DNA of 34,033 bases from Candidatus Zixiibacteriota bacterium (GCA_043819555.1 JBDREQ010000019.1:1-34033); one strand, 5' to 3'. Positions 32,184 to 34,033 are shown, numbered from the stretch's first letter. The notes: generated by a model not told the origin, from the letters alone. Made by a program: numbers and translations.

Positions 32184-32443
32184 TTTATATCCTTTAGAAA
32201 GAATGAATTTATAGATTTACACGGGAGCAATATCCATTTTATTTGATTAAATATTGGATCGCAAATTTAGGCCCTTTGATCAATATGTCAATTGCTGATC
32301 CATTCTCCATATTATGATAATTTTTAGAACGATGATAAACAGGGCCGGTGGCCCACTGCAACTTGTTGCGGTGGGTTCCAGCCGGATTTTCCTTTTCTCA
32401 TAAATCCACAGCGCAACAGCCAAAAAACAGGCCCTTGCCTTGT

Positions 32444-32469
32444 GTCATTCTTGCTTGCGCAGGAATCCA
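32444..32469. repeat. Short palindromic GTCATTC...GAATCCA element
   Basis: GTCATTCTTGCTTGCGCAGGAATCCA resembles the widespread GTCATTCCYGC-N-GCRGGAATCCA palindromic repeats; single copy in this window. Confidence 0.45.
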
Positions 32470-32527
32470 TACATACTCTATCCATGAGGAAAACTTAGTA
32501 ATTAACGGCAAATTAATAGGAATATCT

Positions 32528-32614
32528 TGTAGGGAAGGAGCCCTTAGGCTCCTGCCAATCGCGCAAAGCGCGATACAATAAAATTTATTGGCGGGATCAC
32601 AGGGATCCCGCCCT
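32528..32614. repeat. GTAG-type REP doublet interrupted by the IS110
   Basis: TGTAG plus hairpin GGAAGGAGCC-CTTA-GGCTCCTGCC; central hairpin ATCGCGC-AAA-GCGCGAT; then GGCGGGATC-ACAGG-GATCCCGCC-CT, whose ACA continuation is at 33832. Confidence 0.7.
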
Positions 32615-32628
32615 TGTATCTTAAATCC

Positions 32629-32810
32629 ATAAATCTATTATATTAAGACGAATCGGGATGATTCTGATCCCGCCCTTAAGTTTTGAAGCCTGATTTGTAG
32701 ATAAGAACTCCCGATTCGTTTACAAGATAGCCTGAAGCTGAACGGTATCTTAGGCAATCCGCACAAACGAATTAGCCTGCATTTACAAGGTTAGCATCAA
32801 GCTTCTTACT
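32629..32810 (+). ncRNA. IS110 bridge RNA (boundaries approximate)
   Basis: Two stem-flanked internal loops: target guides GATCCCGCCCT (32666-76) and TTGTAG (32695-700); donor guides ACGGTATCT (32742-50) and TACAAG (32784-89); an 11-bp stem 32648-58/32709-19. Confidence 0.85.
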
Positions 32811-32834
32811 TTAATAATAACAAAGGAGTATGGA

Positions 32835-33821
32835 ATGAGCAAGGCATCTTTTTACGTCGGGATTGATGTTGGTTCTCAAGAATTGGTAGCGGCGGTTGAA
32901 AACCGCAAACCCAGAAGTTTCAAACACAGCCGAGCTGGAATCAAAGCAATGATCAAATGGGCTCAAAAGCTGGCTCCAGAAACACCCTTGCATTTTTGTC
33001 TTGAAGCGACCGGCGTTTATGGTTATTCGCTAGCTTGCCGTTTACATCAAGACCATCAAGTGACAGTAAGCGTTATCAATCCGGCTCAGATTGCTTCTTA
33101 TGCCAAAGCCCAGTTGCGCCGGACAAAAACTGATAATGTTGATGCCAGAGTTATTCATTCTTTTGCTCAAAGCCAGAATCCTCGGGTATGGAAGCCGGAG
33201 TCGTCAACCATTCGCCAGCTCTATTATCTTGTCGTTGAAGCTGACCGAATTGGCAAAACGATGGGACAATGGAATAATCGAAAGCATGGTCATAAATACC
33301 TTAACGATCTCCCTCAAATTATCAAACAAACGAATAAAGCTCTTCAGAGAGCGATGACCAGGCAGTTGGAAAAAATAGAGCAGGCTATTTTGGAACTCTG
33401 CCAACAGAACAAAGAACTTAAGCAAGATGTTCAACTCCTTTGCTCCATCCCGGGTGTTGCAAATCATTCAGCGGTGAGGATTTTGGCTTATGGCAAAAAT
33501 ACGTTAAGGGATTTCAGCCGCAATGCACTGACCGCTCATGCCGGATTGGCGCCAGGACAAAAACAATCGGGAACCTCTATCCACGGCAAATCCCGAATCG
33601 CCAAACAAGGAGACAGTAGACTCAGGAAAACGTTGTATATGCCTGCCCTCGTTGCCGCTTATCACAACCCAACATTAAAATTATTCTATCAAAGATTACT
33701 GGAAAACGGAAAACCGAAAATGGTCGCCATCGTCGCCGTAATGAAAAAACTACTCCTGATGATTCAAGCTATACTCAAAAAGAAAATACCCTATGGCCCT
33801 AACTTTGCTCTTGACTCTTAA
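32835..33821 (+). CDS. IS110-family DEDD recombinase/transposase
   Basis: GIDVG, LEATG and KTDNVDA (DEDD); SIPGV, AGLAP-x-x-x-QSG (catalytic Ser region), GDSRLRK, VAVMKKL. Confidence 0.96.
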   Translation: MSKASFYVGIDVGSQELVAAVENRKPRSFKHSRAGIKAMIKWAQKLAPETPLHFCLEATGVYGYSLACRLHQDHQVTVSVINPAQIASYAKAQLRRTKTDNVDARVIHSFAQSQNPRVWKPESSTIRQLYYLVVEADRIGKTMGQWNNRKHGHKYLNDLPQIIKQTNKALQRAMTRQLEKIEQAILELCQQNKELKQDVQLLCSIPGVANHSAVRILAYGKNTLRDFSRNALTAHAGLAPGQKQSGTSIHGKSRIAKQGDSRLRKTLYMPALVAAYHNPTLKLFYQRLLENGKPKMVAIVAVMKKLLLMIQAILKKKIPYGPNFALDS

Positions 33822-33852
33822 GACGGTATCTACAATTTTTGGGTAAAGGCAC

Positions 33853-33889
33853 AAAAAAAGCCGGGAATCAAAAATCAAATGCCCGGCTT
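33853..33889 (-). terminator. Intrinsic terminator of the right-edge gene
   Basis: AAGCCGGG...CCCGGCTT stem with an A7 run on its left. Confidence 0.6.
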
Positions 33890-33913
33890 ATTCATTGAAA
33901 ATCTTTTATTCGG

Positions 33914-34033
33914 TCACTGCAAAAGCAACATCTTTTTGCTGGCGGTGAATTCATCGGTTGTGATGCGATAATAATAAACTCCTGACGCCGCGTCCCGGCC
34001 ATTATCGTTTTTACTGTTCCACATAATCGAATG
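33914..34033 (-). CDS. C-terminal end of a secreted protein with a FlgD-Ig/T9SS type-A sorting domain (partial)
   Basis: Manual translation HSIMWNSKNDNGRDAASGVYYYRITTDEFTASKKMLLLQ* has the W-x-x-x-N-x-x-G...SGVYYY...KKMLLL signature. Confidence 0.85.
   Translation of the reverse strand, partial: HSIMWNSKNDNGRDAASGVYYYRITTDEFTASKKMLLLQ

Follow-up and report, generated by a model that had tools for sequence, protein, structure and literature searches.

We analyzed a stretch of 34,033 nucleotides from a Candidatus Zixiibacteriota bacterium (GCA_043819555.1 JBDREQ010000019.1:1-34033; hereafter the window). Near its right end lies what is best explained, as a whole, as a structurally intact insertion sequence (IS) of the IS110 group and of the IS621/ISCro4 kind, which is flanked by CT, sits at the 3' foot of an intergenic hairpin resembling a repetitive extragenic palindrome (REP), and carries a bridge RNA in its left end. 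We put the probability of this explanation at about 0.93. Four segments of the left end match the ends and flanks of the element, these segments lie in the internal loops of a conserved RNA fold, they change together with flanks and ends among related copies, and the downstream gene encodes a recombinase of this family in which the catalytic residues are kept. The coordinates of all features are given in Table 1.

Guide matches in the left end

An earlier note on this DNA had read four guides in the left end, and direct reading confirms each of them. On the target side, GATCCCGCCCT at 32604-14 is copied exactly at 32666-76, and CTACAA (33830-35) is the reverse complement of TTGTAG (32695-700). 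On the donor side, ACGGTATCT at 33823-31 recurs exactly at 32742-50, and CTTGTA (32613-18) is the reverse complement of TACAAG (32784-89). The target guides are matched at 9/9 (left, bottom strand) and 6/6 (right, top strand) positions, and the donor guides likewise at 9/9 and 6/6. Two handshake guides that the note did not mention can also be read, AU (32701-02) in the target loop and GU (32790-91) in the donor loop; within the latter, G32790 pairs with C32612 of the target and U32791 does not pair with C32611. Given the base composition of the 216-nt leader, the 11-mer was expected 1e-5 times, the 9-mer 7e-4 times and the two 6-mers 0.06 and 0.08 times, and all four matches occurred together in 0 of 200,000 mononucleotide shuffles. 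The evidential weight comes from the 11-mer and the 9-mer; the two 6-mers alone are unremarkable.

The extent of two of the guides has to be narrowed. The 11-nt identity claimed for the left target guide is real, but because G32666 is invariant in all related copies (as part of a CUG) and the base after it mostly fails to match the flanks of relatives, the working guide most likely has nine nucleotides (32668-76), as in IS621. Similarly, the match of CTACAA to TTGTAG holds in this element, but across the family the right target guide covers CT plus AC alone: GUAG is kept in 13/14 of the model-aligned matches of relatives, and the right flanks begin with AC in the 24 listed right-end junctions. 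Judged by these alignments, the family-wide guide is the four-base GUAG, as in IS621, and the extra AA match here is a natural extension by two bases.

Table 1. Positions of the element, its RNA and gene, and its target site in the window
Feature	Position	Strand	Remarks
REP-like target hairpin GGCGGGATC-acagg-GATCCCGCC	32590-32612	+	9 bp, 100% complementary; 3' arm is the left target
Left CT core copy	32613-32614	+	in 14 related left ends, homology starts at CC-CT-TGTATC
IS110-group insertion sequence	32615-33829	+	1215 bp; left end 220 nt, right end 8 nt past the stop codon; boundaries from related copies
-10-like hexamer TATCTT	32617-32622	+	17-nt spacer from TTGACT across the circle junction; consensus match only
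Bridge RNA region (target-binding and donor-binding loops)	32639-32808	+	covariance model from 8 relatives without the window: sole match in the window, 156 bits, E = 5.1e-41
Target-binding loop module	32646-32721	+	outer helix 32646-57/32710-21, inner helix 32662-65/32704-07, top hairpin 32678-91
Left target guide UCCCGCC+CU	32668-32676	+	identical to 32606-14; flank identity reaches 32666; block varies among relatives and tracks flanks
Right target guide UUGUAG	32695-32700	+	GUAG reads core+AC, and a 2-nt extension, UU, reads AA; reverse complement of 33830-35
Target-loop handshake guide AU	32701-32702	+	complementary to the final two bases of the right end (AT); same position and letters as IS621 A81/U82
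Donor-binding loop module	32725-32806	+	helices 32725-31/32801-06 and 32737-41/32791-95, top hairpin 32752-78
Left donor guide ACGGUAU+CU	32742-32750	+	identical to right end + core 33823-31; co-varies with the right end in L057 and L010
Right donor guide AUUUACAAG	32781-32789	+	UACAAG reads CT+TGTA; by-eye alignment, position for position with IS621 A157-G165
Donor-loop handshake guide GU	32790-32791	+	G complementary to the last base of the left target (C); same letters as IS621 G166/U167
Recombinase gene	32835-33821	+	328 aa; ribosome-binding site AAGGAG at 32823-28
-35-like hexamer TTGACT	33811-33816	+	TTGAC kept in 8/8 aligned right ends and in the further right ends listed
Right end ACGGTAT, right CT core (33830-31) and right target ACAA (33832-35)	33823-33835	+	related right ends share ...ACGGTAT-CT-AC, then diverge

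A conserved two-loop RNA

A consensus fold derived from ten related left ends, one of them from a distant planctomycete, consists of a target module and a donor module, each with an outer helix that encloses an internal loop, the two sides of which are separated by a top hairpin. Its columns pair in 92.7% of cells, compared with 31-47% when the partners are slid by one to three columns, compensatory changes occur in 23/43 pairs, and the covariation score was reached by 0/500 shuffles. Pairs changed on both sides number 6/12, 2/4 and 3/4 in helices 1, 2 and 3 of the target module, and 2/6, 3/6 and 7/9 in helices 4, 5 and 7 of the donor module. In addition, the pair of columns 164/216 is G-U in 9/10 sequences, which fits an RNA read from this strand. 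The fold of the single sequence is modestly better than that of its shuffles (z = -2.88).

All four guide blocks lie in internal loops and not in stems, with just two invariant, uninformative pairs predicted inside them. The covariance model built without the window finds the bridge RNA region alone; among genomes sampled from the order it matches 19/151 (own genome included), and 13/110 among high-quality genomes. The perfect 11-bp stem described earlier around the target guides is present at 32648-58/32709-19. For the donor loop, the GAAGCT/AGCTTC inverted repeat that had been proposed as its stem exists at 32734-39/32800-05, but as a closing helix it is used neither by the minimum free energy fold of the single sequence nor by the covariation-supported consensus, in which the loop is closed by the two helices given in Table 1.

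Guides change with flanks and ends

Among related copies, the block that follows the invariant CUG differs while the scaffold is unchanged, and it tracks the DNA next to each copy. For a first set of 15 copies scored in strict register, the 7-nt guide matched its own flank at 5.13/7 positions on average, compared with 3.53 for non-cognate flanks, and 2/100,000 permutations were as high; with U-G and G-T wobble allowed, the values were 5.93 and 4.51 (1/100,000). A held-out set was found by the model built without the window and scored by a register-tolerant rule, the same for cognate and non-cognate pairs. Here eight copies gave 6.38/7 for cognate and 3.78 for non-cognate flanks, with 0/20,000 permutations as high, and the same count was obtained for all 22 copies together. 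The eight scored copies come from nine new ones, of which L079 was missed by the anchor pattern and is unscored (6/7 by eye). In L080, L081, L090 and L010 the search pattern found no left end, and these loci are unscored. A permutation restricted to nine representatives gave 3/362,880, but as the better-fitting copy of each guide class was picked by hand, the counts over all copies are more trustworthy.

The donor side behaves in the same manner. The left donor guide and the right end change together, reading ACGGTAT in the window, ACAGTAT in L057 and ACAGTCG in L010.

We also observed a sub-group of copies, L057/L070 (G002), L074 (G136), L075 (G138) and L071 (G092), in which CA, CC or a lone C follows the left target guide where CU stands elsewhere. 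The DNA core is still CT in these copies, and without the CU the guide does not pair with the core T.

Recombinase

The sole long open reading frame (ORF) is preceded, six bases upstream, by its ribosome-binding site. Its product has an N-terminal DEDD RuvC-like domain (DEDD_Tnp_IS110, PF01548; E = 2e-20, 73.6 bits against a cut-off of 29, residues 8-151) and a C-terminal transposase domain (Transposase_20, PF02371; E = 7.6e-20, residues 200-286). The only relatives of solved structure are the ISCro4 transposase (E = 9.4e-39 over residues 5-321) and the IS621 transposase (E = 5.8e-38 over residues 6-321), both matching nearly end to end. D11, E57, D100, D103 and S245 align with the catalytic residues D11, E60, D102, D105 and S241 of IS621 (PMC11208158), so that all five are kept. 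These positions were counted by hand in a phmmer alignment to chain 8wt6_A, correcting for two extra N-terminal residues of the chain. Together with the two-loop RNA and a guide polarity like that of IS621, the protein family and the catalytic residues uphold the earlier view of an intact IS110/IS621 ortholog.

A promoter-like TTAGCA-16-AATAAT (32791-32818) lies shortly before the ribosome-binding site and shares bases with the 3' side of the donor loop. This site, a consensus match only, could drive the recombinase in the integrated state.

Boundaries and relatives

Since the own genome (G000) holds one full copy and two short relics, the ends of the element were set by comparison with relatives. 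On the left, 14 aligned copies are homologous from CC-CT-TGTATC on, and the DNA further left is copy-specific; on the right, homology in eight aligned copies ends after ...AAGACGGTAT-CT-AC, and further ends are concordant. A CT core stands at both junctions (32613-14 and 33830-31), likewise in related copies. The ends are thus shared among copies, and the flanks of each go with its own guides, so that neither the differing ends nor the unrelated flanks which the earlier note had named as refuting its reading were found. A DNA search of 40 relatives yielded a full ortholog in G034 (77% DNA identity) and element-internal matches in 8/40 genomes (G001, G002, G003, G008, G013, G014, G017 and G034). 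These close relatives were drawn from separate genome searches, and not from the search of genome contigs for related loci, which yielded four distant planctomycete loci of 33-50% identity.

Elements of the IS110 group have a long left end that contains the RNA and a short right end (PMC11208160). The left end here is long and non-coding, with the non-coding RNA upstream of the ORF, and the right end has eight nucleotides, so the element belongs to the IS110 group rather than to IS1111.

Further traces of this family occur in the own genome. A degraded, orphan bridge-RNA-like fragment lies at C9:79525-79680 (L002 = G000:C9, locus 1501-1656; 86% identity over 99 nt, model match 81 bits); its target guide reads ATCCTGCC, and it has no 5' arm of the target-loop stem, terminal left end or recombinase gene. 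A solo right-end relic of about 33-50 nt at C20:1784-1812 (-) (L003) is followed by CT-ACAAG and comes directly after a hairpin that resembles a terminator, GTCGAAACC-gcaa-GGGTTTCGAC. A sibling element with the target arm TTTCGAC seems to have inserted here long ago and to have lost nearly its whole body since. A second, distant IS110-family ORF is present at G000:C70:5422-6408 (-) (L060), with 27% identity and an open frame of 359 aa. At the contig end, the last 141 bases of the window (33893-34033) match the other strand of G000:C32:25531-25671 with 100% identity, either as an assembly overlap or as a repeat.

Target hairpin and unoccupied sites

The own genome has about 23 hairpins similar to the one at the left junction, of the type ATTGGCrGsATC-n-GATsCyGCC-CTAC; the count derives from 46 matches on both strands of the palindrome, a few of which are probably unrelated terminators. 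In the relatives G003, G009 and G028 we found eight unoccupied hairpin sites, all continuing with CT-AC, and 3/8 read the full GATCCCGCC-CT-ACAA. Among related copies, 18/24 are located at the 3' foot of a hairpin with seven or more pairs, compared with 270/2000 random positions in the same loci, and 6/24 have no clear hairpin (25 rows were scored, of which L068 +615 was dropped as a spurious pattern match). Judging from these sites, the element is targeted to REP-like repeats, at their 3' foot, like IS621 and the Pseudomonas IS110 elements. Taken together, the unoccupied targets in relatives, the left target guide that tracks flanks even in held-out copies and the donor guide that tracks the right end agree with the target and donor that had been assigned to the element.

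No other exact 15-nt target occurs in the own genome, where six sites have two mismatches, and the one other exact 11-bp target, on C45, lies outside any hairpin; this fits a single copy. Y1_Tnp (RAYT-type) genes occur in the genome, and the repeats are termed REP-like here without implying a link to these genes.

The DNA to the left of the element is rich in repeats. A cluster of palindromes occupies 32529-32614, where a REP-like hairpin in inverted orientation (32533-56) is followed by a small one, ATCGCGC-aaa-GCGCGAT (32559-75), and by the target hairpin, and an 87-nt palindrome block recurs at G000:C33:28908-28994 (95%) and C63:20860-20949 (92%). The left flank 32382-32590 is repeated at G000:C25:566-776 with 93% identity, which means that a large part of the intergenic region is repeated DNA. 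Further left, about 40 nt at 32345-32382, ccggtggcccactgcaacttgttgcggtgggttccagccgg, form an imperfect hairpin that has no Rfam match. This stretch recurs at 88-100% identity in the own genome (three times in C25, and in C4) and in G001, G004, G005, G006 and G008, and it possibly represents a second extragenic repeat family.

Discussion

A promoter split across the circle junction has been described for such elements (PMC11208160), and the ends of our element would form a candidate for one: joining them places TTGACT 17 nt upstream of TATCTT, whereas in the integrated state the -35 position reads GGATCA. By homology with IS621, we infer transcription, circle formation and present-day activity along the following lines. 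The element would excise as a circle, whose joined right and left ends would create the TTGACT-17-TATCTT promoter from which the bridge RNA is transcribed. In the target loop, the left guide would pair with the hairpin arm and core on the bottom strand and the right guide with the core and ACAA on the top strand, and the donor loop would pair likewise with the circle junction ACGGTAT-CT-TGTAT. The DEDD/Ser recombinase, as a tetramer, would then exchange strands at CT, with the 2-nt handshake guides (AU, GU) capturing the incoming strands.

Several observations weigh against this account. The 79 contigs of the own genome hold one full copy, and the protein, which is present in a public collection, forms a singleton cluster at 90% identity; neither indicates recent movement. 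No clean orthologous empty site was found: G001, of the same genus, has a conserved right flank but a different hairpin in the intergenic region. The junction promoter is a sigma-70-like consensus match, which may not be the promoter type of the host. Beyond CT+AC, the right target guide fits some copies only (5/6 in L057; just AC in L026 and L015), and in G003 the donor guide reads ACGGTAA and the one right end found reads ACGGTAT, a mismatch at position 7, which is reported as the mismatch-tolerant position of the left donor (PMC11208160). No family matched when 32300-34033 was searched against Rfam 15 at E <= 1, a result that is uninformative either way as the library seemingly has no matching family. 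Also, in strict register the guides of L031 (2/7), L033 (1/7), L017 (4/7) and L057 (1/7) fit their own flanks poorly. L017 has decayed and its ORF spans 171 aa. L057 fits at 7/7 after a register shift of one base, and three others are likewise perfect with such a shift. The flank of L033 (G013:C305) matches the other guide variant of its genome at 7/7, and that of L031 (G003:C127) does so at 5/7, or 7/7 with wobble; these two misfits could stem from recombination between co-resident elements, or from chimeric contigs of metagenome-assembled genomes that end inside the repeat.

The alternative that deserves most attention accepts the decoding but holds that the element no longer moves, being domesticated or stranded as a single copy without usable host targets. 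It would account for a genome with one full copy and two relics of related elements (C9:79525-79680 and C20:1784-1812), for the missing second 15-nt target and the position of the lone 11-bp target on C45 outside a hairpin, and for the singleton cluster of the protein. However, the ORF has its full length with all catalytic residues present, and the four guides and both handshake guides are perfect, although decay would erode them, as in L017 and the relic on C9. Moreover, draft assemblies collapse repeated IS copies, so the copy number may be under-counted. We regard a stranded copy as unlikely, but as a good deal more plausible than the readings that deny the guides.

Of these, one takes the left-end repeats as sub-terminal DNA sites bound by a protein and not as RNA guides. 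It draws on the fact that sequence identity alone cannot separate a DNA site from an RNA guide, but the helices around the repeats keep their pairing through the compensatory changes and G-U pairs described above, the guide block is rewritten to suit different flanks while the scaffold is kept, and the recombinases to which the protein is homologous have been solved with an RNA of this kind bound (PMC11208158). This makes DNA sites very improbable. Coincidence in an AT-rich leader would be conceivable for the 6-mers, given how often each is expected by chance, but not for the 11-mer and the 9-mer or for all four matches at once, and the same layout is seen in 22 related copies; we give chance a negligible probability and count it as already refuted. 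A structurally intact element guided by a left-end bridge RNA thus best explains the whole of the evidence.

It is tempting to go further and read the relatives jointly as a natural reprogramming series, although we hold this only tentatively and think it rather doubtful. At least a dozen siblings in one order would keep the RNA scaffold, the donor guides, GUAG and the handshake guides, and just the 7-nt left target guide would be rewritten to suit local variants of the REP-like hairpin. If this were true, L031 and L033 would reflect retargeting, or an exchange of flanks, through recombination between co-resident elements, and not assembly error, and the sub-group with CA, CC or a lone C would reflect a relaxed reading of the core T.

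The mechanism was described in 2024 and is already known; the element is a new, cleanly readable example, with no new mechanism. It is a typical member of a class that has been catalogued in thousands, and bridge RNAs have been predicted in 85.7% of IS110-group elements (PMC11208160). In the same source, the donor set already contains another element with an identical 24-nt donor junction, and ACGGTATCT appears hundreds of times in the covariation input; the exact RNA of our element was not found in the parts of the supplement that were searched, a partial search that does not establish its absence. What our analysis adds is a fully decoded, compact bridge-recombinase ortholog (328 aa, with an RNA of about 170 nt) from an uncultured lineage, in which the natural target GATCCCGCC-CT-ACAA, the donor ACGGTAT-CT-TGTAT and both handshake guides are legible from the sequence itself, and the guide pairs are all standard. 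Together with its siblings, it forms a ready comparison set, with one scaffold and many left target guides, mostly at hairpin feet. Such a set could inform rules of guide design and the role of target hairpins, and would leave the known mechanism unchanged.

Comparison with known systems

The closest well-described system is IS621 of Escherichia coli, which has the same two protein domains and catalytic residues (Durrant et al. 2024, PMC11208160; Hiraizumi et al. 2024, PMC11208158), although its protein is a distant relative. Both elements have a bridge RNA in the left end, with the target loop followed by the donor loop, and share the CT core and the strand polarity of the guides. In IS621, each internal loop of the RNA is laid out as stem, guide, stem-loop and guide, with pairing to the bottom strand for the left guides and to the top strand for the right ones. 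Two bases follow the right target guide on its 3' side (A81, U82) and two the right donor guide (G166, U167); these are the handshake guides, which pair with positions 6-7 of the other DNA after strand exchange (PMC11208158). In both elements a conserved G precedes a left target guide of 9 nt, the right target guide is GUAG, the handshake guides are AU and GU, and a hairpin repeat is the natural target; the putative promoter across the circle junction here would correspond to the split promoter of IS621. When the IS621 RNA was compared by eye with the window, the blocks CUG before the left target guide, CCUGA-UUU-GUAG-AU, GA-ACGGUAUC and AUUUACAAG-GU aligned position for position.

The two differ in detail. 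For wild-type IS621, ACAGTATCTTGTAT is listed as the donor and ATCGGGCCTAC as the specificity of the target loop (PMC11208160, Supplementary Table 2). The donor of our element, ACGGTATCTTGTAT, differs by one base, as the earlier note had stated, and its target arm reads TCCCGCC, compared with ATCGGGC in the loop specificity of IS621. From the predicted start to the target loop, the leader has about 17 nt without a 5' stem-loop, and that of IS621 has 33 nt with one. By eye, the left donor guide of our element can also pair with the core T, unlike that of IS621, and the base facing donor T12 is an A forming a standard pair, whereas G161 of IS621 forms a G-T pair. The natural 2-nt extension of the right target guide likewise distinguishes our element from IS621. 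As for the handshake, U32791 is unpaired with C32611, and U167 of wild-type IS621 is imperfect in the same way.

Among solved structures, the best match is the ISCro4 transposase (PDB 9t56), a comparison that concerns the protein only. The IS110 elements ISPpu10 and ISPpu9 of Pseudomonas putida have their insertion sites beside a GC-rich stem-loop or REP sequence (bioRxiv 10.64898/2026.03.19.712850); the likeness lies in the position at the foot of a hairpin, to which the 6/24 copies of our set without a clear hairpin do not conform. Finally, elements of the IS1111 group share the DEDD recombinase and the RNA-guided choice of targets, but carry their RNA in a long right end and have sub-terminal inverted repeats of 7-17 bp (PMC11208160), whereas the element described here has its RNA on the left and a right end of only 8 nt.

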